From NCBI GenBank assembly GCA_964187785.1, contig OZ076415.1, forward strand, positions 18,972,001-19,036,000: a stretch of 64,000 nucleotides of DNA. Reading direction: 5' to 3'. The notes beneath the pieces were generated by a model, which was given only the letters and a program-made list of their open reading frames with translations, was not told the origin of the DNA and did no database searches. Positions 773-61,892 of the stretch are shown here, in pieces (positions within the stretch are counted from its first letter, which is position 1; each line of letters begins with the position of its first letter). Source of the stretch: Amphiscolops sp. MND2022 (Eukaryota). The position numbers and the translations under genes are program-made.

Positions 773-838
773 GTTCATTCTAGTTAATTTTTCAAAGCAT
801 AAAAGTTCTTGATGTCATGACTTGTCTTTTCATTGCAG

Positions 839-1255
839 CTTGGAATTCACGAAGATTCCACCAACAGGAAGAAATTGGGCGACTATCTGAGATACTACAG
901 CTCCAACTCGAAGGAGGAAATGTGTTCTCTGAAGGATTACGTCGGCCGAATGAAGGAGAACCAGAAGGACATTTACTACATCACTGGCGAGAGTAAGGAA
1001 CACGTCATGAACAGCGCCTTTGTCGAGCGAGTTGTGAAGCGAGGATTCGAAGTTGTGTACATGACAGAGCCCATCGATGAATACTGCGTGCAGCAGCTGA
1101 AGGAATACGATGGCAAGAAACTGGTTTCCGTCACCAAGGAGGGTCTGGAACTGCCCGAGGACGAGGATGAGAAAAAGAAGTTCGAGGAAGCCAAAGCCAA
1201 ATTCGAGCCATTGTGCAAAGTCATGAAGGACATCCTGGACAAGAAAGTTGAAAAG
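839..1255 (+). CDS. hsp90: Cytosolic Hsp90, internal exon
   Basis: ttgcag acceptor ends 838; [13 protein letters not shown]...IYYITGESK...[34 protein letters not shown]...DKKVEK; GT donor at 1256. Confidence 0.97.
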
Positions 1256-1289
1256 GTGAGATTTCTCTTTGTCAAAAATTGTTACTTTT

Positions 1290-1407
1290 CCGTCAATGGC
1301 AATTGAGCTTCGAATAACCGTTGGTCCTTGCCAATGACGGTATATTATACCTTTCCTGGTGAGTCAGCGGAAACCCTTGGTTTCCGCGTTGCACTTGGGA
1401 AACAATT
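1290..1407 (+). ncRNA. Intronic H/ACA snoRNA candidate, snR191/U19(SNORA74)-like (LSU helix 69)
   Basis: Hairpin 1 CCGTCA..TGGCAA / TTGCCA..TGACGG (1290-1340); H box ATATTA 1342-1347; hairpin 2 with perfect upper stem GCGGAAACC/GGTTTCCGC (1367-1387); ACA at 1402-1404, 14 nt from the pocket. Pocket arms GAGTCA and GTTGC fit GUAAC-U-A-UGACUC. Confidence 0.72.
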
Positions 1408-1515
1408 TTTCTCGTAGCTCGATGAATATTGGTGAATTTTAGGAATTTGAAATTTCGAATTCAAACTTCCGAGAGCGTCTTCCCGAATTAAGTGTCAAAA
1501 AGTTGATTGTTTCAG

Positions 1516-1965
1516 GTTGTGGTCTCTAACAGACTCGTTTCGTCTCCCTGCTGTATTGTGACCAGCCAGTATGGATGGTCTGCTAACATGGAAAGAATCA
1601 TGAAAGCCCAAGCTTTGAGAGACACAAGCACCCTGGGATACATGGCGGCCAAGAAGCACTTGGAAATCAACCCTGACCATTCCATCATCGAGACTCTGAG
1701 GGAGAAGGCAGAGGCCGACAAAAACGACCGTGCAGTGAAAGACTTGGTGATGCTTCTGTTCGAGACATCTCTGCTCTCGTCTGGTTTCACCCTGGAAGAC
1801 CCTCAGGTGCACTCGAACAGAATCCACAGAATGATCAAACTCGGTCTCGGCATTGATGAGGAGGACGAGCCAATGAACACTGATGACACAGAAGCCACCA
1901 ATGACAACCCACCTCCGCTAGAGGGAGAGGACGACGATGCCTCTAGAATGGAGGATGTTGACTAA
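1516..1965 (+). CDS. hsp90: Cytosolic Hsp90, terminal exon ending MEDVD-stop
   Basis: tttcag acceptor ends 1515; [36 protein letters not shown]...HLEINPDH...[11 protein letters not shown]...[11 protein letters not shown] at 1963-1965. Confidence 0.97.
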
Positions 1966-7223: not shown

Positions 7224-7605
7224 TGAAAGGAATATAGGAATATAACTTTCGACAGCTATATCTCGTTTGAAAAAGGGAAGAATATCAACTTCTATTGAAA
7301 TGTTTTTTGGTCCCGAATAACTGTAATGAATATCAAAATAATATGTACGAACATGCAAAAGAACAAAACTTGTCTACAAATATTAATAAACATAATTGAA
7401 GTTTCGAGATAGCAAAGTTCGAAGGTCAAAAGCAAAGTTTTTTACTATGTATTTTTGCGGAATATAATTTTACCAAACATTTTTCGGTTGCCAGGATTCG
7501 AACCTACATCCTAATGGTTGATAGTCTAGCGCGCATCCTCTATGCTATCGCTACTTGATTTCCGTTAATTTAATCTTATTTGTAAACTTTAGTTGCTTTG
7601 CAACA
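7224..7605 (-). repeat. BEL element 3' LTR (382 bp)
   Basis: Minus strand reads TGTTGCAAAG...TTCCTTTCA. Preceded on the element strand by PPT-like GGGCCCGGAGGA (7606-7617). Near-identical to 16092-16453 apart from scattered substitutions and small indels. Confidence 0.9.
7485..7554 (-). promoter_or_regulatory. tRNA-like segment with Pol III A and B boxes inside the 3' LTR
   Basis: Minus strand GTAGCGATAGCATAGAGGATGCGCGCTAGACTATCAACCATTAGGATGTAGGTTCGAATCCTGGCAACCG: A box TAGCATAGAGG, B box GGTTCGAATCC. Acceptor and anticodon stems pair poorly, so it is not called a functional tRNA. Confidence 0.7.
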
Positions 7606-7756
7606 TCCTCCGGGCCCGAGAAGATGTGGTGAAGAAAACTCAAAAAATTAAATGAACCTTTTTTTTCAAATTCATGAAGTATACATGCAATGTTTATTGT
7701 TTAATGAGTACATGTTATCAGTAACGAACAAAAGGGGTTGAGAATGAGACAGTGTT

Positions 7757-10700
7757 TCATTCAGGAATGGGAAAGACGGGAGAGAGCTTGACGATGGGAC
7801 GGGTGAGGTTACCAGATGATGTCTTTACTTCCGCTGACCGCGCGACGGAATCGGCGCCGCAGTTTAACTTGACCACACGGGCCAGCGGATAGTGTCCTCT
7901 CGGCGTGGTGGGCTCCACTATCCAGACTAGATCTCCCGTCTTGAGTTCGCGGTTAGAGGGAGTCATCCATTTAGAACGGCGGTTGAGCGTTGGAACGTAC
8001 TCCTTAAGCCATCGGTTCCAAATTGCGTCTGAATACGCTTGAGCTCGAACGTACCGCTTTCGATGATCTATTTCAGCCTGAAAATGGGTCGGTAATGTGG
8101 AACTAGGAGTTCCCAACAATAAATGGTTCGGTGTAAGCGCATCCAGGTCCGTAGCTTCAGTGCTTGCGGCAGTTATTGGTCGAGCATTGAGGCATTGTTC
8201 CACAAGGCAGAACGTTGTCGACAAAATTTCGTCGGTTAGGCGGTGGGTCCCCAATACCGCGTAAAAAACGTGTTTGAAACTACGGACTACGCGTTCCCAG
8301 ACACCTCCATGGTGGGGAGCACTCGGTGGGTTAAACATCCACTTAATTCGTTTCTTCAAGAGTGCGTCGTTGAGGACTTGCTGGTTCCAATTGTTGATGT
8401 TGTACATGAGTTCTTTTTCACTGGCTACGAGATTTGTGCCGTTGTCAGACCAAATTACGGATGGGGTGCCCCGGCGGGCGCAAAACCTTTCAATCCCCAT
8501 CACGCAGCTACTCGTGTCCATGCTCGGGACCACCTCGAAGTGGACAGCACGAGTCGTGAGGCAGGTAAAAAGAAAGCCCCATCTTTTCTCCGTAGATCGT
8601 TTGACCGATACAAAGAAAGGTCCGAAAAAATCAATTCCCGTGTTCGAAAACGGGGGTTCTTTGAAAGCGAGTCTTTCACGAGGTAGATCTGACATCATTT
8701 GAGTCAATGTTTCGGCTCTTTGTTTTCGACAGGTTACGCATCGGGAAACAATTGTTCTCAGGGTGGTTCTCAGTTTGACTACAGCAAATCTCTGCTGCAC
8801 CAAAGCTCGTAGGTAGTCGACACCCTGGTGGTAATGGTTTTGTGCAGATGCTCTAGAAGAAGCCGCACCAATGGATGACGACCATCTAGAACAACGGGAT
8901 GTTTAACATCAAATGTGGCAACGTTTAGTTGTTTCGTGCGCCCAGAAGCTCTTATCAGACCATTCGGTCCAATAAAGGGGGAAAATTGCGCTATTTTGGA
9001 GGTTCTGTTGAGTGGCGAGGATTTCAGTAGGTTAGTTTTCTCTGAAGGGAATGATTCGAATTGGGCACTATAAAACAGTCGTTGTTCGGCATGTTCCAGT
9101 TCCGCCGGGTCGGTGATTGCAGGAGAAGGGCACCTGTAGAAGCAGTTCTTGTTCAATAGCCGTAACATGTAGGCTACAATGCGCAGGAGTTTCTCGTATG
9201 AGCGATACTTCTGCCACTCGAAAGTTTGTGCAATTGTAGACTGAGTTGCGGACACCATCGTAGTTGACGATTCTGTTGCTGGTGACGGACTGGAACCTTT
9301 TGGTTTCTTCAGCTTCCATCGGCAGTCTTCGGATGGCTCAAAGGGCCATTGGGGCGTTTTCAGGAACTCAGGTCCTTTCAACCAACTGCTCTCCATTAGA
9401 GCGTTTGCTGACATGCCTCTGGTGCCTGCATCTGCTGGGTTATTGCTCGATTGAACGTAATTCCACTCATCTGTCGTAGTTAGCTCCAAGATATCCGCCA
9501 CACGATTAGCTACGAAGACTGGTTGCTTTTCGAGGGAGTAAATGCATTGTAGGACAGTGGTGCTGTCGGTCCACATGAAAGTCCTGCTTATGTCGAGCGT
9601 CAGAGCCTTTTGAACGTCCTTCCTTAGTCTTGCTGCACGCAACGAGGCTTGGAGCTCGAGTTTTGGTATGGTCAAGGCTTTCATGGGTGCCAGTCTGGCT
9701 TTTCCAAACACGAATGCGAGTTTTGTTTGTGGGCAACTGTTTCCACTGATAACCTTTCCTCGGAGGAAGACGACCGCACTGAACACTTCTTGTGGACTAT
9801 CACCAAAGATGTGAAGTTCTAGTGCTTCGACTTTTCCTTGGAAGTATGTTCGCGCGATTGCGATGTCACTAAGCGCTGGTAACTCTTTGGTCCAGTCGAG
9901 GAACTTGGTTACAATATCTTGCGGTAAGTCGTCATCCCACTGCTGCCCACTTAGTCTCCAGATATCTTTGAGTAGCAGGCGCGCTTTGACAGTATACGGT
10001 GCAACTAGCCCAATGGGGACCAAAGAGACCAGACTCAGAACTACCCTTTGTGTAACAGTTGGTTCGATATCAGGGTTTGTACCGCGGCTGACTACAAGGG
10101 TATCGGTAGCGTGGTTCCATTTCAACCCAAGCACATGGGACGATTCTTCACCACTAGGGATTTCTTTCACTTCAGTTGCTGGCGTCGGATCGGTTTCCAG
10201 TTGCGCAGGGATTGATGGCACGTTTGACACGAACTTGGTTAACTTGAAGCCTCCCAGCGAAAGCAGTTTCACCAGGTCCTCAGCTTTGCGTGTTGCTTCT
10301 TTAATCGTCGGGCACGACTCTAGGTAGTCATCCATGTAAAAATTACTGAGAACACTTTGAGCGGCTTCAGGGAACGTTGACTGGTTGTCCGTTGCTGTTC
10401 TCCTCAGTGCATAGTTCGCACAAGTGGGGGAGTCTTTAGATCCAAAGATATGACGGACATACTGGAACACAGCAACATCGGATGCTGGATCTTCGCGCCA
10501 CAGGAAACGAAGTGACGGCCTGTCTTCTGGAATTACTCCAACTTGTAGGAACATTCCTTCAATGTCTGCCGACACGGCATACGGGTATTGTCGGAATCGA
10601 ATCAAAATGTGGATGAGACTCTGCAACAGGTCTGGTCCAGTCAAGAGTGAATTGTTCAAGGAATGGCCTTGGAACTTGGCGGCGCCGTTCAACACTCGTC

Positions 10701-13700
10701 GAACTTTACCCGGTTTGTGTGGATTAACGACCGGATGGTGCGGAAGGTACCACTCGCGGGTTTTACTCACTTTGAAACAATCGGCTTTGTTAACGTTCAC
10801 TATGTAACCTTTGGAGTGATCTTCATGGATGATTTTGGAGTATCGCTCTTTCAACTCAGCATCTTTCCCGAGACGACGTTCCAGGGACTTCAGCTGGACT
10901 TGAGCCGAAAAGTAGTTATTCGGCAAACTACTCTCGACCTCAGTCCACAGCATACCCACTTGGTAACTCGACCCATTGTGGTATGTCGTTCGTTCAAGTA
11001 TCTTTTCCGCTCTCGCGTCGGCAGCGGAACGGGGGTCTACATGTTTGAATGCTCCGTATGATTCCATTTCATACCAGCTGCGGAGTTGGTCGCCTAGTTC
11101 GGAATCTGCATCTTTGCTGGACGTGACAGCCTTGAAACACGTTGAAAACAATCCAGAGGTCGATGGAAGGGGTCCACTCAGTACCCAGCCCAGCGGGAGA
11201 CGGACGGCAACTGGAGCTTTCTTACTGTCGGATTCGAAGTACTACAGTGGGCGGATAAAGTGAAACACGTCCTGACCCAGGATCATGTCGACGTCAGCGT
11301 AGCTGTATTTGTTCAAAGATATTGGTTCTAGGTGAGGATACTTGGTTTTCAGGTGGTCAACGTCGATGGTGTCGGTACCTACGCTGAGATTTTCTCTCAC
11401 GTACGGTTTGATGGCAAAGGAGGAGCAAGAGCCACTCGAATGAACGGGTGTCAACTTGAGCTCCACCGTTTCGGTTTCAACGACTTGATGGGAGTTGATT
11501 CCATGTACGGTCAGTTTTGTCGGTACTCCATGAACTTTCAGTTTTCGAGCCAACCTTGCAGAAATCCAAGAATGGCTACAGGCAGAATCGCAAAGGGCTA
11601 ACACTTTTTCGGAGTTCTCATTGGAATGCAATTCTACTTCAGTAATCTGCAAGAGGCCCTTAACATCAGTAACAGACGGCAAACCCGAACTTTCATCAGC
11701 ATGCCCGTTTATCTTCGTTGTTCCAATGCAGGTTGATGTTTCTGGATTTCGATTGTTAGGAGCTTGGTTTTTGTTGGGAAAAATTCGGTCGGCGCCATGA
11801 AGGAACGTGTTGTGGGAGCTTCCACATCCGTCTTTAGTACATTTCCGCGGCTGGGGGCACTGTCGGAACGAATGGTCGTCGTTGAAGCACGAGAAACAAA
11901 GTTTGTTGTCGGCAACTAGCTTTGCCCTCTCCGTAGGAGTTTTCTTTCTAAATACCGGACATCTCCACAGAGGGTGTTTCTCTTTGCAGGCCACGCAAGT
12001 TGGCGCGTTGTCGGACTTTGCTTTGGAGTTTGTATTTCGTTGGTTGGTCGAGGCTATTGCGGCAAACACTTTGGATGTCGTCTTGGTTTTCGTTACACTA
12101 GATTGGGTATTCTCGTCCACTTTGGTCTTTCCCGAAGCTGTTTTCATTCGTTCGTGGGCTTCGGCCTTGTCTTTCAACCAATCGTTGAAGTCGACTAGTG
12201 TCGGTGGGTCTAAGCTACGCTTCACCGTGTGCATCGACCATGCTTCTTTCATGTTCGGTGGAAGCTTTTGAACTGCCTGACCGAGTAGTGAGGCACTTGA
12301 CAAGTCTTGGTTGTAATTAAGGGACCTAAATACTCCAACTAACGAGCTGACTGTTGCCGAGTAGCTAATGATGCTATCGCTATTATGCATCTTCACCGGT
12401 GGTATGTTAGCATGTTTGTCCAAGTACGCGGTTACTACTGCCTGTGGTTGTCCGAATTCGCGCTCAAGTGTTTTGACAGCATCCCTGTACATGGCTCCAG
12501 AGTAGGCAAACTCGGCTATTGCAACTTTGGCTTTTCCGGTAACCAACGTTTTAAGGTATGTCAACTTGACATCGTCTGACAGAGAGGCAGAGTCAATGGC
12601 ACTCTTGAATTGTCCGAACCACTCGTGCCATTGAACGGGATCCCCGTTGTATTGGTACTGTTTCCGCTCTGATAGGTGATCCTTCTTTGTTGAAGCCAGT
12701 AGTTGCGCAACTTCAGGTAATGTGAAACATGCTGAACTTGTCAGTGGTACAGTGTTCGCTTGAGGCGGGAAAACAGAAGCGGCATTAGCGTTAGGCAACC
12801 AGGATGATGGTGGAGTCGACGTACCAACAACCGCTGGGGTAGTAATGACTGGTGGAGGCACGTAGTAAACGGTTCCTCTACAAGTGACGGGTATCGCAGC
12901 TACTGATGATACCGATGTACTACCCAATACTGTGCTCGTTGTGGTTACTTGAATCGGTTGGTTTAGCGGCAGTGCTGTGCTCACTTGCGTCGGCGGGTTG
13001 CTAGTCCCGGATGGAAACGTCCAAGCGGACAGGTTGGGAAGTATGGCCTCTCTATGGCTCCCATGAAAGGAGTATAACTTTCGACAGCTATATCTCGTTT
13101 GAAAAGGGAAGTATGTGACTGACCGGCACAGTGAGAGTTGGGTTTATCGGTACAAGAGGAGGATGCAGCAGAACTTGACTTTGAATAGTTGTTGTTTGAG
13201 TGGTAGTCGTAGAAACCGGTTGCGGTAGCGTTGGCTGAACCGTTGCTGGGGCAGGGACAACAACCGCAGCGGCAAGAGTATTTGGTGGCCGAACAGCCGG
13301 CGTTTGATGAGGGTTTGTAACGTTGAAAACTGGCAGCTGAGGACTAAGAGTTGATACAAAAGCAGCACTGGGGTCGGAATTTGTAGCAACAGCTGCATTA
13401 GTAACTTGGGTTCCGGCAATTTGGGCTTGTTGCGGTGGAATTTGGATCCCGAAAGGATTGGTTGAGGCTGCTGTCGTTGGAACTTCATTAGTCGGCAGGT
13501 TAGCTTCGGCTCCACTGGGCGAATTGTTGATCCATTCATTGATACGCTCTGTTCCAATTCCCTTGCTAGTAGCGCTCAAGCGAGATAGAGTTTCGTGAAA
13601 ATCTAAGTTTGAATCAGACAAGTCTTCTCGAAGTTCCATTTCGGCCAAAGTAGCTTCCGCTAGTTTGCGACGATTTTCCTCCTCTAATTCTTCGACCCTC

Positions 13701-14270
13701 AACGCCTGTTCCTTTCGCAGTCTTTGCAGCTCAAGTACTTGTTGTTCAATTTCGAGTTGTTGTTTTAGCTTTGCTAGGCTTATAATGGCTTCATTTTGCT
13801 TCTTAATCTCCTCACGTCGCTGCTGAGCAATTATGAGATCTCGTTGCTGTTGGCTAGACGTCTTTGAATCTTTGGAGCTGGTTGCTTTGCTGGATTTACT
13901 CTTAACCGTTGTTGTCCGGTGTGAAGACTGAGATGACTTATCCAGTTGTAGGCATTTGTCAATGTAATCCCTTGCTTTTTTCAGGATTTCATCATTTTCC
14001 TCAGTAACGTCATTCAACCACTTCTCCAAGTCGTCAGTTATAGTTGTCGGGTCGTTGCATTTCTTCACAAGCTCCAAAAGTTGCTCATTTTTTGCGAAGG
14101 CTTTCGTCATTGCTGCGTTGCAATATTCGACCAATCGCTCAACACGAACACGACGTTCCGAATTGTCAACAGCATCTTCAATGTCTTTTTGGGAACTTCT
14201 TAAGTTCCGTCTCCGCCTTGAGACGACTCTGGAAATACTTTTGAACTTTCGCCTATACCGGGTCGGTCAT
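7757..14270 (-). pseudogene. BEL gag-pol polyprotein, disrupted
   Basis: ATG at 14268-14270 (MTDPV*AKVQKYF..., with an early stop and frameshift), then ORFs 13088-14134, 11242-12984 (Gag Zn knuckles, protease LCDSAC), 8779-11151 (RT/RH) and 7757-8803 (integrase). Other lesions: 70-bp insertion at ~13046, in-frame TAG 11242-11244, frameshift near 8830. Confidence 0.93.
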
Positions 14271-14343
14271 CTTTTATTACGTTTTCTACAGGTCGGTAGA
14301 AGTTGTTTAGGGAATCAGTTGATCGAACCTTTGTGAGCGTCGA

Positions 14344-14727
14344 CCAAACAGTAAAGTTTGGACACAGTCCGAAAGGATTAATTCTCAAGAATTGGTACGC
14401 TATTTCTTGTTGAAATTACCGTTTGTAGTGCTTCTTCAAGAAGCGCGGGAGAATTTTGTTGTTTTTTTTGGGTTAAAAGCAGTCTCGGACTACAAGGACG
14501 ACGACAAAAACTTAAATCCGCGTTGAAAACGCGGTTTCAGTGTGAGATGTGGTTAAGGGTGCTGTACTGCCAGGATTTCAACCGGACAATAAAGTCCGGA
14601 CACCATTCTGACAGTGAAGGACGAGGACGGAGTTTCAAGGTATCAACCTGACAATAAAGTCTGGCCACAACCCTGAAGACTATGGAAGGTGTGTAGAGAT
14701 TTCAACCAAACAACGAAGTTTGGACAC
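14344..14727. repeat. Four short hairpin repeats in the gag leader
   Basis: CCAAAC-AGTAAA-GTTTGG (14344-14361), CCGGAC-AATAAA-GTCCGG (14582-14599), CCTGAC-AATAAA-GTCTGG (14647-14664), CCAAAC-AACGAA-GTTTGG (14706-14723), each followed by (A/C)CAC. Confidence 0.85.
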
Positions 14728-14763
14728 GGTCTCTACAACAAGTAAGTTAACGTTGGGGTGGGT

Positions 14764-15441
14764 TCAGTGAGACGGATTCAAAGATGCCCTTTTGATGGCG
14801 TTCCGGACACGCTTGCTAGGCCTCTTTGGGCGGCTTTTATCAGTAATAGCTGATAGTTGACTCTCTTTACGTAAAATGAAGTCAAGACTTTTCAATTCAA
14901 GCTCTGGGCTCTGGTGTAAAGCCTTATATTTTTTCAGAAGCTGTGGATCTTTTTGTTTTTTCGATGAGATAAAATCTTTCACGATACTGAATACTTCGAT
15001 GTTATGATCGGTTTTCAATAGATTCAAAGCAACAAAAATGTACGGCGTTCGATAACGTTGGCAATAAACCAGAGCACAGAGTTTGTCTTGAATAGCTTTA
15101 AACTCATCAATCAATTGTGCCACAGTTAATGCTTGAAAACTGTTACTGTCGTGACGGAAAATACTGTCATTTAAAACCTCATGCCAAATAACAATGTTCT
15201 TTTTCTCTTTTAGATCTGTGGGAGCAAATTCTGAACAATTTTTTTTGGATGTCTAGTGTTTTTGTTCAGACTCAGGCCCGGGATTGAGAAATTTTTTATC
15301 GTTATAGCTAGTTTGTTCTTCGAGGGTTAATGTTTTCAAAGCATGATCTAAAGAACTGGCAGCTATTATAAAAACTATGTGTGTAACTTGAACATTTTTT
15401 TTTGCGATCAGTTTTTTTTCGCAAATTGATTTTTTGTTCAC
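14764..15441 (-). pseudogene. Extra ORF inside the BEL element, SGNH/GDSL-like motif order, two frameshifts
   Basis: Joining frames gives ...IVFIIAASSLDHAL...IPGLSLNKNTRHPKKIVQNLL..DLKEKKNIVIWHEVLNDS...LCALVYCQRYRTPYIF...YKALHQSPELELKSL. It lies between the PBS and gag on the element strand. Confidence 0.6.
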
Positions 15442-16074
15442 GATTATAGCTATGTTGTTTTTAAATCGAAATCAATTTAGGGCTTGCCATCTCGAAACAT
15501 AATCCCACATTGGAACAGCAACTTTCCCTACTTGACACTCAAGTGCATTATTTCATTTCGTTTTGAAACACTAGTTTCTGGGTAACCTTAATTTCCGGGT
15601 TTGTCAGGCAAGTGGGGGATCTTCGCCTCACCTTTTTCTGGCTGCTAGAGGGGGGGGGGGCGTCTACAGCTGGCTGAAGGGGGTGGTTTGGCTGAGTAAC
15701 CCTTCAAGTAGCTCGTCCCAGTCCCGATGTAATAATTGAATGATTAATTATATGAATGAACTCATTCCAAGTCAGATGAAGAAAGCCTGCGAGGTTTGCA
15801 ACCTCTCCACCCACGTGGCCAAAAGTGGTGTCACATAAACTCACTTAGCCCTCGCGCCTGATGAAGACTGTCTCACGTCATCACTAGACTCGTCAAAGAA
15901 TAAACTGTATCCCGGAAGCCCAAGGACTGGCGATGAGCAGAGCAGATCCAGAATCGACTTCAATAACTTTCCAATAAAATCACAAGCAGTCCAAGCTACA
16001 CTGAACTTAAAGTCCACGTAAAGTAATCCCAAGTCAGCTGTCAGTGTGTTGGAAATGAGTGCAACTGCAGAAAG

Positions 16075-16091
16075 CCTCTCTATGGCCACCA
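16075..16091 (-). promoter_or_regulatory. Primer binding site of the BEL element
   Basis: TGGTGGCCATAGAGAGG directly follows the LTR-terminal CA; it is complementary to a ...TGGCCACCA 3' end. Primer tRNA not securely identified. Confidence 0.8.
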
Positions 16092-16453
16092 TGAAAGGAA
16101 TATAACAGCTATATCTCGTTTGAAAAAGGGAAGAATATCAACTTCTATTCAAATGTTTTTTGGTCCCGAATAACAGTAATGAATATCAAAATAATATGTA
16201 CGAACATGCAAAAGAACAATACTTGTTTACAAATTTTATTAAACAAAATTGAAGTTTCGAGATAGCAAAGTTCGAAGGTCAAAAGCAAAGTTTTTTACAA
16301 TGTATTTTTGCGGAATATAATTTTACATTTTTCGGTTGCCGGGATTGGAACCTACATCTTAATGGTTGATAGTCTAGCGCGCATCCTCTATGCTATCGCT
16401 ACTTGATTTCTGTTAATTCAACCTTATTTGTAAACTTTATTTGCTTTGCAACA
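16092..16453 (-). repeat. BEL element 5' LTR, shared with an upstream truncated copy (362 bp)
   Basis: Homologous to 7224-7605; PBS on the inner side, PPT plus integrase C-terminus on the outer side; tRNA-like segment at 16333-16402. Confidence 0.9.
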
Positions 16454-16920
16454 TCCTCCGGGCCCGAGAAGATGTGATGAGGAAAACTCAAAAACCTAAG
16501 GGAACTTTTTTTTCAAATTCATGAAGTATACATGCAATGTTTATTGTTTAATGAGTACATGTTATCAGTAACGAACAAAATGGGTTGAGAATGAGTCAGT
16601 GTTTCATTCAGGAATGGGAAGGACGGGAGAGAGCTTGACGATGGGACGGGTGAGGTTACCAGATGATGTCTTTACTTCCGCTGACCGCGCGACGGAATCG
16701 ACGCCGTAGTTTAACTTAACCACACGGGCCAGCGGATAGTGTCCTCTCGGCGTGGTGGGCTCCACTATCCAGACTAGATCTACCGTCTTGAGTTCGCGGT
16801 TAGAGGGAGTCATCCATTTAGAACGGCGGTTGAGCGTTGGAACGTACTCCTTAGGCCATCGGTTCCAAATTGCGTCTGAATACGCTTGAGCTCGAACGTA
16901 CCGCTTTCGATGATCTATTT
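16454..16920 (-). mobile_element. 3' end of a second BEL copy (integrase C-terminus, 3' UTR, PPT)
   Basis: Copy of ~7606-8072 (IDHRKRYVRAQAYSDAIWNRW...SPVLPIPE*); homology stops abruptly at ~16920. Confidence 0.9.
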
Positions 16921-17103
16921 GCCAAAAAAATCCTGAAAAGGCTCTCTCTGGTCCTCGGAAAACGTTTTGTTTCTGCTGAAAATCTAAAGGGGCCAAAACA
17001 AGACCATCTACATTTGGGCCATCTACAAACTACATTTGTTCGGAGAAAGAGTCCCTTTCGACAAAGCCGCAACCCATATTGGATTTAACGGAAATGTATA
17101 ACG

Positions 17104-18960: not shown

Positions 18961-20203
18961 GGGGAAAGTTTTAGAGATGTCCCACATTGCTCTAGCTTTA
19001 ATCAGTTTTTAGCAATTTTGAAATGCAGAGTAGTGAGTTTCAAACTTTGAGTCTAAGGATGGCTGCTGATCAGTGAGAATGAAATTGGAAGGATGATGAT
19101 TCTCTTCTTGTCGGCCCGCGGGGATTTCATTCAGATTTGTTTTACTTTTCCCGGGTTTTTGCGTTGCATTCTCCTAGTAAATTGTCATTAACAAAGTTTT
19201 CCCCAGGATCAGCTTTCAACCTGTCGCTGAGGCCTCTTCGAAGAGCCGACAGCGGCCTTGTTGACTCGCACTAACTCTATCAACACTCCCAGTTAACGTG
19301 AAGTCCTTGAGCATCACGATGAGTGTTTATTAACACTCATAAGCCACTTGAAGATTTCAAGTGGGTGAAGATACGGCTGAAGGCCACGTGGTCTTCCATC
19401 TCGTGAAGCAGCCAATAAGATCGCAGCAAATTTTCGTCTTTTACAAAATGGACATTCAAAGGTTAAAGCCCATATAAGGAGCAAAATAATATGATATTGA
19501 AATAATAAAATCACGATGGAACTAACAAAATATTCGTTTGAAATAACAAAGTTTGCCAGATAAAACAAGGTACTATAGATATTGCTGGCAGACTCTATCG
19601 ACATATCAACGTAAAATATAAACGACTATAAATTTGACACCAAACTGTATAGCCACGAACTCCATTTTCAACATCTTGTCACATTGCTGATTCGCCATTC
19701 AATTCTTTTCTTTTAATTCCTCATCGTATTCTTCTTGTATTATCCAGTACTTATTCACTCTTAGTATTTCTCTTCATTGTATTTAAACCATAGTTAGTTT
19801 TCCAGTCTTTGAGTTGTCTTTTTATATTCTTCTTTTGCATCCCCACTTTGGACACTTCGTCCATTCTCCTCGTTCTTGTGGACCATTCTTACCAGCTTCG
19901 GATTTGTCGACAACAGGTCCCAACAATAGCACCATTCCCAACACCAGTTACAGTTTGTCTGATCTTCAGTCTTTAACGTCAGCTTGTCACTTGGTTCTTT
20001 CTTTCCAAGTAAGTTGGAACCCTCTTTTTCTCTGAACGGAAATTAGCTTGATCAAGTCTTAAACATCGTTCAAGTACTTCCAGTCCAACAACACAAGTCT
20101 TCACATGTGTTCAATTTTATCTACTTCCGGAAAATTATTAACGCGGTAAATGGATTCTGATTCAGGAAGGTTCTAGCTTAATCTCATCTCGTTTTATTTA
20201 GAC

Positions 20204-23200
20204 ATGTCGACCGATGAGCAAATAATAGAGGAACTAACCCACGAGCAAGAAAGCTCTGAACAAGCTAACAAAGCCGCCGTAACCCATAGCCCATCTTCCA
20301 AAGAGCAAACTGTTGATGTTACTGCGCCTAGTCCGTCTACTGAAGAGAGCATAAGTGCGTACATAGAACGTACCTTAGCAACTTTGGGAAAACAAGTAGA
20401 TAGCCCACGATCTTCTTACCTCCTAATTCTGTAGACCGCAGCAAGAGCCATGATGTCGAAAGTTGCCCAAGAATCTCGGAATCTGGAGCGATGACGTAAG
20501 TGGTAGTTCCCTTTGATGCACGCACCCAGGAGCTTGCATATGAGGAAGGACAGGATGATTTGGTCAGTGAGGTCAGTTCCGGATTTCCATAGACTGACAA
20601 TTTTCAGACCGATACTAGCGATATTGGTAGATGCCAGTCAACCCGACAACCTTCATTGTTCCTGGATCAGAAAGTGGCACCAATCCAGAAACTGTCACTC
20701 TACCCGAGTCAGGTCACGTCCACTAATCCACGTCCTTGCAGTCCCCCAAACAACTATCCGCGTCAAGGCAAACTCCGATTCGAAGGTAGTTCCTGGAGAA
20801 TACTACCATCAAGCTTCCTATGGGACATTCTACTGTGGCGTTTAACGAACAGCAAGTCCATAGTTTCCTCAAGACCGTCTGTGATGAAACAATCATCTCT
20901 TCATTTCACACCATGAAGAACATTTTGGACGACGCGATGCGGGTTGGTGTTCAAACACGTACTGGGAATTCTGGACCAGTTCATTCTACAGTTCGATGTT
21001 TCAGCGGGCAATTTAGAGTGTCTATCGCAACGTCTAGCCACCTGATGACAACACTGGGGGTTACACTAGCGGTGCGCTCAGTTCTGACGACGACTTCGAC
21101 ACCTTTGACACGCCAACCAATGGCGTACACGAAGGATCTGAAGTTCAGTTAGATCCCAGTTTTACTAGTAAAGTAGCCTCACAGGCCGTTAGCCCTTCTG
21201 AAAACATTGTTCCTAGCCCAGGATTTAGTTCTGCCGACTATGAGCTACTATCTATCTTGCGACAGTCAGCTTCCAAGAGCCCATTGGTCCCTGGTACTCC
21301 GCGGAAGAACTGTCGTCTGCTTGCCCTGCCGGGCAAAGTGATGAAGGAGGCCTTTTTCGAGGGCATAAACTGGACAAGAACCTTCGTGACAGGATGTCTC
21401 GACCTCGAGCATAACAATAATAAGTTCTATTGCCAAAGTTGCAAGAGGAACGTTTCAATGTATTCCAAGGGAGCTCAGGAGGTAGCCAGACACTACCAAG
21501 CCGAATCACACCTGCGCAAGGATCAAAGATGGCGTTTCCATCATTTGGGTAAAGTGGACAAGATCACTGGACACGTCCGCCATGAGGTCAGGGGAAGAAT
21601 GGCCAAATCTTATCTCCCACTGAACTAGAGAAGGAAAGAACTCTTTTCGAGAACGCTCGCTCAGTAGACGTAGGGGACAAGTATCCTTTCTACGACGATT
21701 GTATGGCCGGCCCAGGCTCATATTCCAATCCTGAGGAACTCCGCTTGAGTGCACAGATCACCTTAGTCGCCAGTTTCACTCCCGTCTGTGGGGACATCAG
21801 CTTGCTTCAGACTTTGTGGAACCAGATGGGAACAGTTACAATCCATCAAGCTCCCTTTGCATCTTTCGACTGGTGGTCACGACACTCTCGGTGAGTAACT
21901 TTCAAGTCTTCTAAGCGGACATTCCCGTAGGCCAAAAAGTAAATACGCGAATGAGCCACAGTAAACCGGCTAGGTACCACACAGTACTTTACTAGGTGCA
22001 CTTATACTCAAGGACCTCTAGGCCTGGTAATGTAACGTCGCGTTTTATTTTGATCCTTTTGTTCAAGCCAATCCTCCATCACATCTTCCTCTGTGGGATT
22101 GCTGGCATTTCCGACCACGTTGAAACTACTGGTCTGTAATCGTTGGAGTTGGAGTAGATAGGGGTTTACTGCTTCCTCTCCATTCGAAGTTGGAAAATGA
22201 ACGCCCTCTCTACAGTGAAACGTTTCCGATACCAACTGCACTCCGAGCCGATATCTGGACTGTTGATTGCAGTTTCTCGGCTCCTTTCTGTGCCTTCTTC
22301 TCAGCCCGAGATCGTCAGTGTGTCTGGATGGACCGGCGGACCTTGTGTCCCTACTTGAAAGGTCATCATATTTCAGCAAAGGACTCCAGTAGCTTTTCTG
22401 GTTGGATGTTTTCTCTCTCAAACTTGATGCATCAGCGCTGGGACAATGTGTTCGGAGGAATTAGTTTTTTTTGCATTTGAGATTCCTCGTCACGTTCATG
22501 GACGGATGTCAAAACCAAGTCTGGATCACCGTGATGCTTGAGTTGACTAAGGTTAGTACTTTATGGACACTAAGGCTTTAGTCCTCGGGAGTTGTTCCAC
22601 CGAGGCTTGTTTTCTTAGGCGATATCATGCAGCAAGTTGGAAATACCCTTCAATCCAGTGATATACACCGAACTCATTCACAACTGGAAGTCCGTACTGG
22701 ATTACCTGACCAAAGTGGCTCCTCCCCGAGCCAATCAAGGTGTAAAGTTTTAAAAAATTGGTGCTTCTCCTTCTAATATCGCCTTGGTTTCGGTCAGATT
22801 GTGTGGATAGGAGAGAGTCTCTGTGCACTTTAGCATTGTGTTTTAGCCCCAAAGTCTTGAATGGCAATCATTGTACCGACGAACTTTTCGTGGCCAAACT
22901 AGAATTCTTTGGGCGTCTCGTCCGATATTGTTAGTACTCGCACTTCCATCTTGACTCATTTCACATAGGTTATTTGCATTTCTCTGGTCTTTACAATTTC
23001 ACCGCCTTGCGGTCTTGTCGTCATCACTTGAATTCGTGTGATAATGTTAACTCGTATTCTTTGTTTGTTTCTCAGATAACAGGAGCTTCGAGGGCAGTCT
23101 CTCTCGACGGAAGGACTCTGGGTTCCTAACCTATCGGGAACTACATACTTTCATTCGCAAGTTGTGTTTCACGATCCCGCCTACCCCAACACGTTCCTGG

Positions 23201-23210
23201 ACTAACTGAT
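20204..23210 (+). pseudogene. Gypsy A antisense spliced gene with a BED-like zinc finger, decayed and 3'-truncated
   Basis: ATG 20204; FYCQSCKRNVSMYSKGAQEVARHYQAESH finger (~21424-21512). GT-AG introns ~21891-22067, 22552-22618, 22742-22846 and 22930-23075, plus a possible 5'UTR intron 20146-20201. Exon 22619-22741 is intact (41 codons). Confidence 0.75.
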
Positions 23211-23595
23211 TGGATGTTTCTTGTGATTACTCAGCGTGCTGTACTGAGAAATAGACAAATTGCCGATTTCGGACTAGTAGATTATTTACCACTGGAGTTG
23301 CTATTATTCTGTTTGTAATATTATTATTTCTTGTGTTTAGAGTATAGTAGTCATTTTACGTATCAAATTCGAATCAAATTACAATTGATGTTTGAAGTAC
23401 TAATTGTTAAGTTAGTGCAATACTTTTAATTACCAGTCCTGGACCGATTCCGGCGATTGACTAATCTGCTATGTTATGTCTGACTTCCATATTAGGCCAT
23501 ACCAATATTGCCTTTTATATGTTATTTGGTAATTATTATGACCAAGCAACCTGGTATCGCTCGCGCGAAGGTACGTGCCAAAGCAGGTTACTTCA
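23210..23595 (-). mobile_element. 5' part of another LTR (minus strand, starts TGAAGTAACC); duplicated at ~27200-27583
   Basis: TG-start at 23595, AT-rich U3-like sequence, abrupt change of context on both sides. Confidence 0.45.
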
Positions 23596-23599
23596 TAGT

Positions 23600-24216
23600 T
23601 GCAATGCCTTTGTCCCTACGTAACACTTGTAACATATGATGTTGTTTATTGACATATGATGTTTCATTCAAAAATGCATTTGGAATAACTGGTATCTTAA
23701 ACGTTCGAATTGCTTCAGTTCTTTGATGTAAGCAAAACCTTTAAAGAGATGGTAGTGAATTTGGAAACTCGGCCACACGGCCTGAAAGTCCTAGTTATGA
23801 TGCATTGGTGGATCGTAACACCAACTCTCACTCCGGTTCTGGTGAGAATGAAATTAGGCGATTTGCCGGAAACGACCAAAATCCACGAGATATTGATTCT
23901 GGTAGTGAGATAAATAGGTTGTCAGGAGGAGAACTAAACCAAAGAATCATTCAGCAGATGAATGTCCTAATGAAGAGTGTTAGTTTGCAAAGTCAGAGGG
24001 CCATAAATGAGGCAATTAACGAACGAGTGTTACAACAAAATCAAGCCTCTCTCAGTTCCGATTCTGGACAAATGTCCAAAAGGGGTTGAAACCATCCAAC
24101 TGAGAGACCGGAAATTAGGTCCGAAGGAACTTTGAACAGCACGGTCCGACGCAGTTCACGGGATGAGCATCCCCGTAATTCAATTGTTGCTGAGAATGAG
24201 GAGGATGCTCATTACA
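23600..24216 (+). mobile_element. 3' part of a Gypsy LTR encoding a gag N-terminal fragment; duplicated at ~27590-28203
   Basis: EINRLSGELNQRIIQEMNVLMKSVSLQSQRAINEAINERVL resembles EVNRLSSELNSRLSREMDE..IQRAISDAISNQIL in the element B LTRs; ends ...CATTACA. Confidence 0.65.
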
Positions 24217-25146
24217 CTCAGGGTTGTATTTAAGTACCAGACAAAAAATGCACACCTTTTGTTGCAGGTAGAACACGAGCAGTCTCTCTCAGAACTTCCA
24301 TGCAATTAGACTACTATCAACTATGTGAACCAAAAAACACGGAATTCATAAAAAATTTTGAGTTCTCAAAGTTTGAAAAACTTTTCAGCAAACGTTTCAA
24401 AACCCCTTCAAAATGAAATTTTCCTGGAATTGAAAAATCTTTCACGCATCAAGAAGGACATCGAGAAGACTAGTACACATTTTGAGATGAAACATTTAAA
24501 GTAGTTTGTTTGTTTACAAACACTACCATTTTGACGAATGATTTTTTTGCGATTCCGAAATCGTAAAATTGGGTGAACAAAAAACAAAAACACTGAATTT
24601 CCCCTTTTCAAAATGGTAATAGAAGTGAGCAAGGCTCTGAAATTCTCTCACTTTACTGTCAATCTTGAGCTATTATTACGTAATCGATTTCGCAAAAAGG
24701 TTTGGTTGAAACTTTCTAAAAATGTGTAGACCCATTTACCCGCCAACTTGTTCTCACTTTTCATGTGTGAATATTGTTTCGCATCGACAAAAGTTGGCAA
24801 GTCGTTCAGCATTGAAAGTTGTTTTGAATTTTTTGTTGACAAATATTGAACTTGTTGTTGAATTTTCCAGTGCTCGAAAGTTTTTATACGTTCGTTATAC
24901 GTTCGTTATAGTACTAGATGAAACAAAAAAAACGTAATGCACAAAAATATTTCACTCTTCAAAAACCTAATAATTGTAAACAACACACTGGAAAACTTTC
25001 ACTTTCTCTGTCAATCATCCTTTCATTACGCAATCAAATGTTCAACAAAAAACGATCCAAACCTTCAGAAAAAGTCTAGACGTCTTCACCAGTCATTTCG
25101 TTCCCAATTTTGCTGTGTGAAAGTGCTTTTGCCTCGACGTAAAGAC

Positions 25147-28100
25147 TGGAGAATACTGCCATCAAGCTTCCTATGGGACATTCTACTGTGGCGTTTAACG
25201 AAAAGCAAGTCCATAGTTTCCTCAAGACCGTCTGTGATGAAACAATCATCTCTTCATTTCACACCATGAAGAACATTTTGGAGGACGCGATGCGGTTTCG
25301 AGTTCAAACACGTACTGGGAATTCTGGACCAGTTCATTCTACAGTTCGATGTTTCAGCGGGCAGTCTAGAGTGCCTATCGCAAGGTCTAGCCAGCTGATG
25401 ACAACACTGGGGATTACGCTAGCGGTGCCCTCAGTTCTGACGACGACTTCGACACCTTTGACACGCCAACCAATGGCGTACACGAAGGATCTGAAGTTCA
25501 GTTAGATCCCAGTTTTACTAGTAAAGTAGCCTCACAGGCCTTTAGCCCTTCTGAAAACATTGTTCCTAGCCCAGGATTTAGTTCTGCCGACTATGAGCTA
25601 CTATCTATTTTGCGACAGTCAGCCTCCAAGAGCCATTGGTCCCTGGTACTCCGCGGAAGAAACGTCGTCTGCTTGCCCTGCCGGGCAAAGTGATGAAGGA
25701 GGTGGGGACTCCAGTCTTTCACTCCCGTCTGTGGGGACATGAGCTTGCGTCGGACTTTGTGGAACCAGATGGGAACAGTTACAATCCATCAAGCTCCCTT
25801 TGCATCTTTCGACTGGTGGTCACGACACTCTCGGTGAGTAACTTTCAAGTCTTCTAAGCGGACATTCCCGTAGGCCAAATAGTAAATACGCGAATGAGCC
25901 ACAGTAAACCGGCTAGGTACCACACAGTACTTTACTAGGTGCACTTATACTCAAGGACCCCTAGGCCTGGTAATGTAACGTCGCGTTTCATTTTGATCGT
26001 GTTGTTCAAGCCAATCCTCCATCAGTACTTCCTCTGTGGGATATCTGACATTTCCGACCACGTTGAAACTACCGGTCTGTTATCGTTGGAGTTGAAGTAG
26101 ATAGGGGTTTACTGCTTCCTCTCCACTCGAATTTGGAAAGTGAACGCCCTCTGTACAGTGAAACGTTTCCGATACCAACTGGACTCCGAGCCCATATCTG
26201 GACTGTTGATTGCAGTTTCTCGGCTCCTTTCTGTGACTTCTTCTCAGCGCGAGATCGTCAGCGTGTCTGGATGGACCGGCGGACCTTGTGCCCCTACTTG
26301 GAAGGTCATCATATTTCAGCAAAGGACTCCAGTACCCTTTCTGGTTGGATGTTTTCTCTCTCAAACTTTGTGCATCAGCGCTGGGACAATGTGTTCGGAG
26401 GAATTAGTTTTTTTCGCATTTGAGATTCCTCGTCACGTTCATGGACGGATGTCAAACCCAAGTCTGGATCACCCTGAGTTGACTAAGGTTAGTACTGTAT
26501 GGACACTAAGGCTTTAGTCCTCGGGAGTTGTTCCACCGAGGCTTGTTTCCTTAGGCGATATCATGCAGCAAGTTGGAATACCCCTCCAACTCAGTGATAT
26601 ACACCGAACTCTTTCACAACTGGAAGTCCGTACTGGAGTACCTGACCAAAGTGGCTCCTCCCCAAGCCAATCAAGGTTTAAAGTTTAAAGTAATTGGTGC
26701 TTCTTCTAATATCTTTTTGTTTTCTGTCAGGTTGTGTGGATAGGAGAGAGTCTCTATGCACTGTAACATTGTGTTTTAGCCCCAAAGTCTTGAATGGCAA
26801 TCATTGCCGACGAACTTTTCGTGGTCAAGCTAGAATTCGTTGGGCGCCTCGTCCGATATTGTTAGTACTCGCACTTCCATCTTGACTCATTTCACATAGA
26901 ATATTCCCATTTCTCTTGTCTTTACAATTTCACCGCCTTGCGGTCTTGTCGTCATCACTTGGTTTCGTGTGATAATGTTAACTCGTATTCTTTGTTTGTT
27001 TCTCAGATAACAGGAGCTTCGAGGGCAGTCTCTCTCGACGGAAGGACTCTGGGTTCCTAACCTATCGGGAACAACATACTTTCATTCGCAAGTTGTGTTT
27101 CACGATCCCGCCTACCCCAACACGTTCCTGGAGTAACTGATTGGATGTTTCTTGTGAACTTGATTGGATTATTTGTGCAGTACTATTATTTGCTGGTGAC
27201 GGCACTTTGATTGAACACTCAGCGTGCTGTACTGAGAAATAGATAAATTGCCGATTTCGCACTAGTAGATTATTTACCACTCGAGTTGCTATTATTCTGT
27301 TTGTAATAATATTAGTTTTTGTGTTTAGAGTATAGTAGTCATTTTTACGTATGAAATTCGTATCAAATTACGTATTGATGTTTGAAGTACTAATTGTTAA
27401 GTTAGTGCAATTCTTTTAATTACCAGTCCTGGACCGATTCCGGCGATTGACTAATGTGCTGTTATGTCTGACGGCCATATTAGGCCATACCAATATTGCC
27501 TTTTATGTGTTATTTGGTAATTATTATGTCCAAGCAACCTGGTATCGCTCGCGCGAAGGTACGTGCCAAAGCAGGTTAATTCATAGTTGCAATGCCTTTG
27601 TCCCTACGTAAAATTTTTAACAATTGATGTTGTTTATTGTCATATGATGTTTCATTCAAAAATGCATTTGGAATATGCGGTATCTCAAACGTTTGAATTT
27701 CTTCAACTCTTTGATGTAAGCAAATCACCTTTAAAGAGATGGTAGTGAATTTGGAAACTCGGCCACACGGCCTGAAAGTCCTAGTTATGATGCATTGGTG
27801 GATTATAACACCAACTCTCACTCCAGTTCTGGTGAGAATGAAATTAGGCGATTTGCCGGAAACGGCCAAAATCCACGAGATATTGATTCTAGTAGTGAGA
27901 TAAATAGGTTGTCAGGAGAACTAAACCAAAGAATCATTCAGGAGATGAATGTCCTAATGAAGAGTGTTAGTTTGCAAAGTCAGAGGGCCATAAATGAGGC
28001 AATTAACGAACGAGTGTTACAACAAAATCAAGCCTCTCTTAGTTCCGATTCTGGACAAATGTCCAAAAGGGGTTGAAACCATCCAACTGAGAGACCGGAA

Positions 28101-29138
28101 AATAGGTCCGAAGGAACTTTGAACAGCACGGTCTGAGGCAGTTCTTGGGATGAGCTTCCCCGAAATTCAGTTGTTGATGAGAATGAGGAGGATGCTCATT
28201 ACACTCAGGGTTGTATTTAAGTACCAGACAAAAAGTGCACACCTTTTGTTGCAGGTAGAACATGAGCAGTTTCTCTCAGAACTTCCTTGCAATTAGACTA
28301 CTATCAACTATGTGAACCAAAGAACACGGAACTCATAAAAAGTTTTGAGCTCTCAAAGTTTGAAAAACTTTTCAGCCAACGTTTCAAAACCCCTTCAAAT
28401 TGAATTTTTCCTCGAATTGAAAAATCTTTCACGCATCAAGAAGGACATCGAGAAAACTAGAACACATTTTGAGAAGAAACATTTATAGTAGTTTGTTTGC
28501 TTACAAACACTACCATTTTGACGAATGAGTTTTTTTGCGATTCCGAAATCGAATTACTGGGTGAACAAAAAAACAAAAACTCTGAATTTCCCCTTTTCAA
28601 AATGGTAATAGGTATGAGCAAGGCTCTGAGATTCTCTCACTTTACTGTCAATCTTGAGCCCTTATTACGTAATCGATTTCGCAAAAAGGTTTGGTTGAAA
28701 CTTTCTAAAAATGTGTAGACCCATTTACACGTCAATTTGTTCTCACTTTTCATGTGTGAATATTGTTTCGCATCGACAAAAGTTGGCAAGTTGTTCAGCA
28801 TTGAAAGTTGTTTTTGAATTTTTTGTTGACAAATATTGAACTTGTTGTTAAATTTTCAAGTGCTCGAAAGTTTTTATACGTTCGTTATACGTTCGTTATA
28901 GTACTAGGTGAAACCAAAAAAAAACGGAATGCACAAAAATATTTCACTCTTCAAAAACCTAATAATTGTAAACAAGACACTGGAAAACTTTCACTTTCTA
29001 TGTCAATCATCCTTTCATTACGCAGTCAAATGTTCAACAAAAAACGATCCAAACCTTCAGAAATTATCTAGACGTCTTCACCAGTCAATTCTTTCCCACT
29101 TTTGCTGTGTGAAAGTGCTTTTGCCTCGAAGTAAAGAC
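25147..29138. repeat. Tandem segmental duplication, unit 2 (3992 bp) with an internal ~420-bp deletion
   Basis: Lacks ~21351-21774 (the zinc-finger region), which is replaced by a 15-nt filler at 25703-25717. Confidence 0.92.
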
Positions 29139-29984
29139 GTCAAATCGAAATACTGACAAGCTGAATTGTGATGTTCAGAGTTGTTTTCAAACATTTGTTG
29201 ACAAATATTTGGAACTTTGAGAGCTCAAAAGTTTTTATGCGTTCCGTTTTTTTTGGTTGACCTAGTCGTAGGTGACCCGCAAAAACGGTACTCGTAAGCA
29301 TTTGGAAGATTGATAATTCAAGCATTTGTCAACAAAATGTGAACTTCCGGGGTTTTTATTATGTCTAATTTCAATCAATCAGAGGAATATCAGTTTGAAG
29401 TACAGCTTCAGGGAGATTCGGTAGGTACTTTGAACTTAAATCAAGAGATCGTCATCCAAAAGCAACGTTTTCGATCACAGGCCTTTTGAAACGGGTTTGT
29501 CACGTTTCGACTGACAGTTCAGTTCAAACTCACTGATCGTTTTGAGACGCATTTCAATGTTCTGTTTACTCATATTGGGTTCTTGATTTGAGCGAATACC
29601 ACGACTTGTTTCATTTTTGTGGATCATCTAATACTAGGTGAACCAAATAAACGGAACGTACAATTTTTCGCGTCTTCAAAATCGTATTATTTGTAAACAA
29701 GATACAGAAAATCTTCCAGTTTTTCTGTCAATCATTTCGATTGAAGCTCTTATTACGGAATCGCATCTTCACAAGTGGTCTAGACGTCTCAACCTCTTTT
29801 TTAGTCGGCGCTTTCGAAGAAAATCCCGACTCTTACAGTGGCTAGTTTTTTTTCGTCAGTTCAACGCGGTCGGTCCACTTTTTGTGCATTAAGCACTTTT
29901 ACCATAAGTACTTAGTACTTCATTTTCAACCCATCCAAAGCATCAAACCCATCCTCTAACACGAGATAGAAAGCCATTCCAAAG

Positions 29985-58200: not shown

Positions 58201-58640
58201 CAACTTCAAATGACCCCACGTGAATGAAGCAAATTACATAATAACGAGAGACTTCTTAAGTGATAACATGGACGCGGCCCATAGACGGAATGAGAGATTA
58301 AATGATGATGTCAGCAAAAGAAATGAAGCTACTGAAGCTGCTAGAGATGAAAACTCTGATTTGCCGAATCTGGCCGTTTTTCCCAAAAATACTTGAAAAT
58401 TTTTGCCGGATCTGTCCGGAAGACAGAAAAATGATGCAAATTTTTCAAGCAAAACTTATTCACCGAATGAACTTGATGCACAAGATTCTCCAAAAAGGGG
58501 CATGATAATATCGTGCCCGAAATATCTCAAGACGATGGTAGAAACAAAAGTCTTAGAGGAGGGAAATATAATCGAAGGCCTAATCCTAAATCAGACTACT
58601 CAGAAGACATTAGATACTGAAAAGAATTGAATTTCGCCCA
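51646..58640 (+). pseudogene. Gypsy B gag-pol, many frameshifts and stops
   Basis: Gag (FDGKSEQFELFEDLF, KGHMVKDC knuckle), protease LIDTGALSS (~54036), RT (KLDCSQAYH, YVDD), RNase H (TDAS), integrase (QIDLLP, LITDKGTAF, GKLERTH). End approximate. Confidence 0.93.
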
Positions 58641-58859
58641 GAAATGAGCGTTATCGTTTTCCTTTTCTTCCCCATTTTTTCTTTCAGTCCCATGATGTTA
58701 TCTTTGAATAATTAATGGGACGATTGAAAGACCCCTTTTGAATAAATAAATACAAGGGTAGAACAGAAATCAGCAACAAATGAATAAATACAAGCAACAA
58801 ATGAGCAAAAGGATCAAAAAGTTTACAATCAAATTGTTTACATAAATACATTTGTACAT

Positions 58860-61880: not shown

Positions 61881-61892
61881 TAGCACCCGCTG

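Follow-up and report, generated by a model that had tools for sequence, protein, structure and literature searches.

SGNH genes in transposons are already known. An SGNH esterase is described as a domain of the ORF1 protein (ORF1p) of CR1, RTEX and L2 (ZfL2-1) elements and is also reported in Penelope-like elements (PMC3905857); a GDSL ORF3 is carried by Vesta, a group of LTR retrotransposons of bdelloid rotifers, and shared with Athena/Terminon elements (PMC5408684, PMC5718144, PMC6431247); texim SGNH genes are carried by fish Helitrons (PMC4021074); and Drosophila Gypsy elements of the MDG1 group have sORF1 and sORF2 upstream of gag (bioRxiv 10.1101/2025.03.14.642691). Why unrelated transposons repeatedly acquire SGNH esterases has been an open question since their discovery in LINE ORF1 proteins; membrane roles have been proposed in the literature, and a reported activity test concerns a single fish element. 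Our literature search found no SGNH ORF in BEL/Pao elements; Repbase, subscription journals and supplements lay outside it and may hold such an annotation. In word searches, "esterase" was absent from PMC2774666 and esterases were not mentioned in PMC6338049. As far as these searches reach, the gene described here, ORF0, adds BEL/Pao to the carriers of SGNH genes.

ORF0 shares with the ORF1p esterases of CR1, RTEX and L2 an SGNH fold upstream of pol, a basic surface, retained catalytic residues and a scattered distribution across clades. However, those esterases lie within a multimeric ORF1p with a coiled coil, whereas ORF0 stands as an ORF of its own ahead of an intact ORF1 or gag, is without the Asp of block V, and is also present in LTR and in DNA elements. 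Profile searches of the PDB with A2 and A3 returned 0 matches at E up to 10, further PDB sequence searches returned nothing meaningful, and no sequence-level link to the ORF1p esterases emerged. Both Vesta ORF3 and ORF0 are accessory GDSL/SGNH genes that stand free within LTR retrotransposons and are common to retroelement classes of one host. Vesta ORF3 lies downstream of pol, in low-copy families and with no clear departure from neutrality, while ORF0 is upstream of gag in BEL/Pao elements, has thousands of genomic candidates, is under strong purifying selection, carries a leaky-scanning signature and has more host element classes. The texim genes resemble part of this family in adjoining a Helitron, but are described as having introns and no linkage to RT, while ORF0 family members appear as single open frames and the sampled copies lie mostly in retroelements. 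The MDG1 sORFs are likewise accessory and lie on unspliced RNA between the 5' LTR and gag; they are ~70-110 aa long, sORF2 is a FAST-like membrane protein, and neither is SGNH or in BEL.

The window, a 64,000-nt stretch of the Amphiscolops sp. MND2022 assembly (contig OZ076415.1), holds a BEL/Pao element on the minus strand, with two direct LTRs ending in TG...CA, a primer-binding site (PBS), a polypurine tract (PPT) and the domain order gag/PR (DUF1759), RT, Pao peptidase (Peptidase_A17)/RH and IN with DUF5641. From 5' to 3', the 5' LTR (16092-16453) is followed by the PBS (~16074-16091), which is kept across the family, a hypervariable leader between PBS and ORF0 (15399-16073), a broken copy of ORF0 (15378-14764), an ORF0-gag spacer of ~490 nt that is colinear with an unbroken copy, L002, and AUG-poor across families (14271-14763), and gag-PR-RT-RH-IN (7757-14270), which stops and frame breaks interrupt. 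The element ends in the PPT (7606-7617) and the 3' LTR (7224-7605), together 7224-7617 (-), and its LTRs are identical at 347 of 362 aligned bases. Directly upstream of the 5' LTR, another BEL copy, truncated and in tandem, has left its PPT and the C-terminal end of its integrase (16454-17029, -). The 5' LTR thus doubles as the 3' LTR of the truncated copy, and the tandem arrangement is the reason why the window element has no target-site duplication (TSD) at its 5' side. An LTR end and PBS are duplicated within gag (13046-13105, -) in the window copy only, being absent from L002, L008 and L012; this may be the product of an aberrant strand transfer. Short repeated motifs ~56 nt apart were seen by eye in the spacer (14350-14730) and could be RNA signals. 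Named BEL/Pao clades are Pao, Sinbad, Bel and Tas together with Suzu (PMC2774666); here the BEL lineages are numbered 1, 2 and 3 according to how similar their RT is to that of the window (36% and 29% identity) and not by named clade.

A reading of the window from sequence alone had placed an ORF of ~220 codons with two frameshifts between the PBS and gag, inside the LTRs. The place and both breaks stood, while the length came to 205 codons: comparison with L002 gave 587 identities and 27 mismatches, showed that the frame is broken by one base near 15297 and again near 15224, and revealed no start codon. The catalytic Ser codon lies at ~15357 and the His codon at ~14916. The motifs on which an SGNH assignment had been based (IIAASSL, PGLS, VIWHEVLNDS, LHQ) are present in that order, in frames 0-1-0. 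However, the "ND" taken for block III results from changes private to this copy, in which two block III positions that other members conserve are altered; block III of the family is conserved too, but of another kind. Chance does not account for the ORF, as the family profile matched the window once (E 3.7e-60) and genome searches returned many further candidates. The window copy is dead.

In the 1.07 Gb of genome searched, a DNA search for ORF0 returned 565 candidates, of which 40 were scored, while 3512 came from a search at the protein level, with 150 scored. Linkage to BEL was borne out in the loci sampled: in 1.5-kb flanks, BEL gag lay downstream of ORF0 in 57 of 59 other close loci (exceptions L006 and L039), and when elements of the same lineage were picked by the RH domain of pol, taking every seventh of 150 matches, ORF0 was present in 19 of 20, the one without it also lacking gag. 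A second BEL lineage was sampled through its PF05380 matches (roughly one in four of 150, plus two); here only 8 of 40 elements carried ORF0, and five of these eight resembled one family. Therefore, ORF0 is fixed in one BEL lineage and patchy elsewhere. An independent insertion as the source of ORF0 was ruled out by colinearity with gag in the 57 loci, and the absence of insertion boundaries on the gag side agrees with the earlier view that the ORF belongs to the element family. TG...CA ends with a 5-bp TSD were found in six of ten ORF0-bearing elements checked; under a strict check no TSD was found for L099, L152, L104 and L085, where the called LTR ends of L085 and L104 look incomplete. Several ORF0-bearing elements have LTRs that are 99-100% identical. 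In L104, a single stop parts ORF0 from gag, and both share one frame.

The SGNH fold, which had so far rested on motif order, was recovered from a natural copy. An AlphaFold2 model of the L002 ORF0, built on an alignment of 94 diverse members, reached pLDDT 96.4 and pTM 0.88, and has the flavodoxin-like alpha/beta fold of SGNH proteins; an earlier model built on 64 close members reached a lower pLDDT of 76, with GDSL lipases already as its top structural match. The best Foldseek match was the GDSL lipase 3p94 (E 1.8e-4, probability 1.0), and the VIA wide structural search gave Z 11.7 and rmsd 3.7 over 159 aligned positions, its top 50 rows being nearly all SGNH-type proteins or domains. Oskar's OSK domain was also matched (Z 8.6), below about 30 true esterases. 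The ZfL2-1 esterase did not occur among the structural matches listed. ORF0 is like cellular GDSL/SGNH esterases (3p94, AlAXEase 7ddy, OatA 6vjp, TesA/TAP, PAF-AH) in its five-stranded flavodoxin-like fold (Z 9.5-11.7, rmsd 3-3.7), and differs from them in that identity is ~12-18%, neither a Pfam GDSL match nor the Asp of block V is present, and a further basic helix at the C-terminus (residues 189-200) lies beyond the region matched to SGNH structures. Pfam scans of the window ORF, the 64 close and the 94 diverse members found no SGNH/GDSL family; a recurring match to TPR_ZFYVE26 was rejected, as it was below cut-off and contradicted by the fold. Homologues formed 781 clusters at 50% identity. 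A viral structure library gave generic phage SGNH domains only and viral contigs gave no relative; ESM Atlas matches scoring 0.88-0.92, in whose clusters 17-30% of the members carry GDSL, are treated as leads only. A soluble alpha/beta model and a location upstream of gag do not fit an envelope-type protein.

Active-site positions, assigned by alignment and secondary structure and numbered as in L002, were conserved at S8 (85/90), G34 (86/93), N71 (86/94) and H155 (89/93), corresponding to blocks I, II, III and V, and N71 and H155 were invariant among 32 members from all element classes at 20-59% identity. The DxxH pattern of block V, which the sequence-only reading had cited as established for SGNH hydrolases, does not hold here: no Asp is kept three residues ahead of the His in the family, and position 152 is variable (commonest K, R, Q, S). 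A catalytic Asp is reported for 23 of 30 SGNH structures, and some SGNH proteins use a main-chain oxygen or Glu (PMC10792757), so that catalysis may still be possible for ORF0. Candidates for the acid in place of the missing Asp are the conserved D67 (86/92) and E161 (82/94), as well as a main-chain oxygen. The protein is basic, with a median net charge of +24 and a median of 12 K/R among its 35 C-terminal residues.

Natural intact copies were compared in pairs by NG86. In the 10 unsaturated pairs whose dS exceeded 0.5, dN/dS was 0.07-0.15, and 6 close pairs had values of 0.21-0.42; 4 further pairs were saturated. The gag N-terminus had similar values (0.07-0.12 at dS above 1), as did RT. ORF0 is thus under purifying selection, as the dN/dS check called for by the sequence-only reading was meant to decide, and the reading of ORF0 as a captured esterase-fold accessory gene is supported by the SGNH fold and a fixed place in the BEL family. 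In some pairs, dS of ORF0 was at odds with that of its neighbors (L201/L158: 0.33 vs. 0.09 in gag and 0.07 in RT; L197/L159: 1.6 vs. 0.33 and 0.82; L002/L017: 0.58 vs. 1.1 in gag), from which we infer exchange of ORF0 between BEL families.

While ORF0 is indeed part of a BEL element, as first read, it is not BEL-specific. Among 60 diverged matches examined with 8-10 kb of context, 33 were in BEL, 16 in LINE and 9 in Gypsy elements, and 2 had no class. The BEL carriers form three lineages, with ORF0 preceding gag; the Gypsy carriers are one Ty3/Gypsy family with ~158-bp LTRs, again with ORF0 before gag; and the LINE carriers are APE-RT elements in three groups, with ORF0 before ORF1. We label these groups CR1-like, I-like and a third by domain layout and not by a tree. 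In all class-assigned cases ORF0 was the 5'-most ORF, and in 26 of 27 elements in which the next ORF was found it is separate, terminated by a stop ahead of ORF1 or gag. In one LINE (L173, G000:C1428), ORF0 was continuous with ORF1 in a 565-aa frame; a search for longer fused forms found none, which is weak evidence. Cross-class identity was about 22-48%. The window also contains a LINE RT fragment (36127-37698, +) with 98.6% protein identity to L103, the full-length form of which has ORF0 before ORF1.

More distant members adjoin DNA elements. Some lie beside Helitron-like ORFs of 2300-2500 aa with PIF1 and GIY-YIG (L238-L243), and others beside a SET/DUF1258 DNA element with its own SGNH subfamily (L245, L251). 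Helitron-like ORFs at L238, L240, L243 and L221 end in a PIF1 helicase and a GIY-YIG nuclease, after which the SGNH gene follows. The SET/DUF1258 element (L245, L246, L248, L251) also has a presumably BEN-like ORF, with no Pfam match. L246 and L248 were rejected as separate evidence for the SET element, as they contain a LINE 5' piece (96% DNA identity). Relatives with 29-42% identity were found on 17 metagenome contigs, five of them before CR1-like genes and two after GIY-YIG ORFs, one of the latter with PIF1, indicating that the family extends beyond this assembly. In the ORF0 tree, members grouped by host class near the tips; at depth the tree gave no resolution of the donor or of the direction and order of transfers.

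The placement of ORF0 before another gene was accompanied by a marked depletion of start codons. In 27 sequences, ORF0 bodies contained 89 ATG vs. 215±13 in dinucleotide shuffles, and 18 ORF0-gag spacers contained 29 vs. 84±8, whereas seven controls (gag, pol, LINE RT, HSP90 exons and three non-coding sets) were at 0.97-1.10 of expectation. Internal Met accounted for 3 of 5410 residues in retroelement ORF0 and 85 of 7603 in the next ORF. A purine at -3 was found at 4 of 27 ORF0 starts, compared with 18 of 26 starts of the next ORF. Since the 27 sequences behind the AUG and Kozak counts are related, p = 8e-5 overstates their independence. Six copies of the DNA-element type had 10-15 internal ATG and 4-6 Met, and a purine at -3 in 4 of 5 checked, while three LINE-type copies had 0-1 ATG; among metagenome relatives, 6 of 11 had no internal ATG. 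Given that copies in DNA elements do not avoid AUG, avoidance tracks position and not the protein.

Leaky scanning is an established mechanism of eukaryotic initiation. The AUG-poor body and spacer, together with the weak start context, point to it here, and we consider it quite probable that retroelement ORF0 is made in this way from the same RNA as gag or ORF1. Both would lie on a single unspliced RNA, on which some ribosomes would start at the weak ORF0 AUG and the remaining ones would scan past the AUG-free ORF0 body and spacer to the stronger gag or ORF1 AUG. Against this, BEL leaders contain 2-13 upstream ATGs each (232 in total vs. 365±14 expected), which simple scanning would have to pass. 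These counts provide a candidate sequence signature for an upstream accessory gene that shares one RNA with gag, with the DNA-element copies, which lose the signature, as an internal control.

The stretch between PBS and ORF0 occurred in 33 distinct versions among 57 BEL leaders (L002-L060, L094 and L096; L095 was left out for a false PBS match), with ORF0 staying in place while the leader cargo changed from copy to copy. Host gene pieces in leaders included Glycos_transf_2 (L050-L052) and TBCC_N (L053), and the L047 piece is presumably glutamate-receptor-like. In L050-L052, three host exons are joined without introns, at 85-88% identity to G000:C12:50044984-50050738. These intronless exons indicate that the BEL leader serves as a capture site for spliced host mRNA, with which BEL particles recombine at the leader. 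ORF0 likely moved among elements by RNA template switching as well: the RNA of a LINE or another ORF0-bearing element may have been captured by the same route as the mRNA pieces in leaders.

That ORF0 is itself a neutral passenger, captured with host mRNA and functionless for its elements, is hardly credible: the adjoining leader does capture host mRNA pieces and ORF0 is patchy in one BEL lineage (8/40), but dN/dS of 0.07-0.15 largely refutes the idea, and frame and length preserved across classes, position-dependent AUG avoidance, and a constant ORF0 next to leader cargo that varies between copies also speak against it. The presence of one gene family in so many unrelated jumping genes suggests that all of them likely use it against or upon the host. 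Among the functional readings, we favor an acyl-hydrolase acting on a host substrate over lipid targeting, and the latter over an Oskar-like RNA binder.

In its general form, the favored reading holds that ORF0 is a conserved accessory gene encoding a putative Ser-His acyl-hydrolase that acts on a host molecule and helps unrelated transposons spread; we regard this as an even bet. Given that ORF0 serves capsid-forming, RNP-forming and DNA-only elements, the host cell is their common factor, which favors a host substrate; that such a substrate is reached in trans is our prediction, though at slightly less than even chances. ORF0 might, for example, remove an acetyl or acyl group, thereby easing silencing or access, its K/R-rich tail would be a nuclear or nucleic-acid anchor, and the protein would not be a structural part of the particle. 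Against this reading, the triad Asp is missing, and a median net charge of +24 fits a non-catalytic binder of RNA or lipid equally well; moreover, many elements do without ORF0, which is present in 8 of 40 elements of the second BEL lineage and missing from the Gypsy element in the window. More speculatively, this SGNH family, not catalogued before, might be a genome-wide plug-in counter-defense factor that removes an acyl mark from a host component of silencing or germline access. Within one animal lineage it would be passed between BEL and Gypsy elements, several LINE groups, Helitron-like elements and DNA transposons that bear SET, and in retroelements it would be a leaky-scanned first cistron. 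If true, a counter-defense factor would help a ~1 Gb genome fill with transposons.

A membrane- or lipid-targeting protein analogous to the ORF1p esterase of ZfL2-1, in line with the lipid binding or particle trafficking suggested by the sequence-only reading, is an unlikely alternative in our view. Such a protein would bind acidic phospholipids by its basic surface and hydrolyze slowly, aiding RNP or particle assembly, trafficking or cell-to-cell passage. The shared fold, the strongly basic protein, the retained catalytic Ser and His, and the probable origin of ORF0 from the same RNA as gag or ORF1 would all fit such a role. However, ORF0 is separate from Gag and ORF1p and would thus be untethered to the RNP, it also lies beside DNA elements that have no RNP or particle stage, and the model, in which the fold begins at residue 3, shows by inspection no signal or membrane-length hydrophobic segment. 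Because ORF0 occurs in DNA elements, the particle trafficking that had been proposed is less likely to be its whole role.

Still less probable is a pseudo-enzyme like Oskar, which would bind RNA via its basic surface and tail and steer element RNA to the germ plasm or shield it from small-RNA silencing. The OSK domain, a non-catalytic RNA-binding SGNH domain according to PMC10792757, was among the structural matches (Z 8.6), and the absent triad Asp and the median of 12 K/R among the 35 C-terminal residues are compatible with this idea. However, OSK ranks under about 30 true esterases, and Oskar has no triad, whereas ORF0 keeps its Ser, Asn and His at 20-59% identity, which is hard to explain without catalysis. 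With one small, separate and predicted soluble protein selected in LTR, non-LTR and DNA elements of the same genome, its role is narrowed to a shared need, and the question of why transposons acquire such genes becomes directly testable on a 200-residue protein.

Other repeats and a gene share the window with the BEL element. The LTRs of the Gypsy element (50587-63517) are ~1.6 kb long and 91% identical, and another insert seems to be nested in it near 59000-61500; it gave no match to the ORF0 family profile. Positions 821-1965 (+) presumably contain HSP90 3' exons, assigned by sequence features, which served only as a codon control. At 20200-29140 lies an unclassified repeat, a ~4-kb unit repeated twice at 94-96% identity, in which the ORF at 21038-21628 has a weak C2H2 zinc finger.
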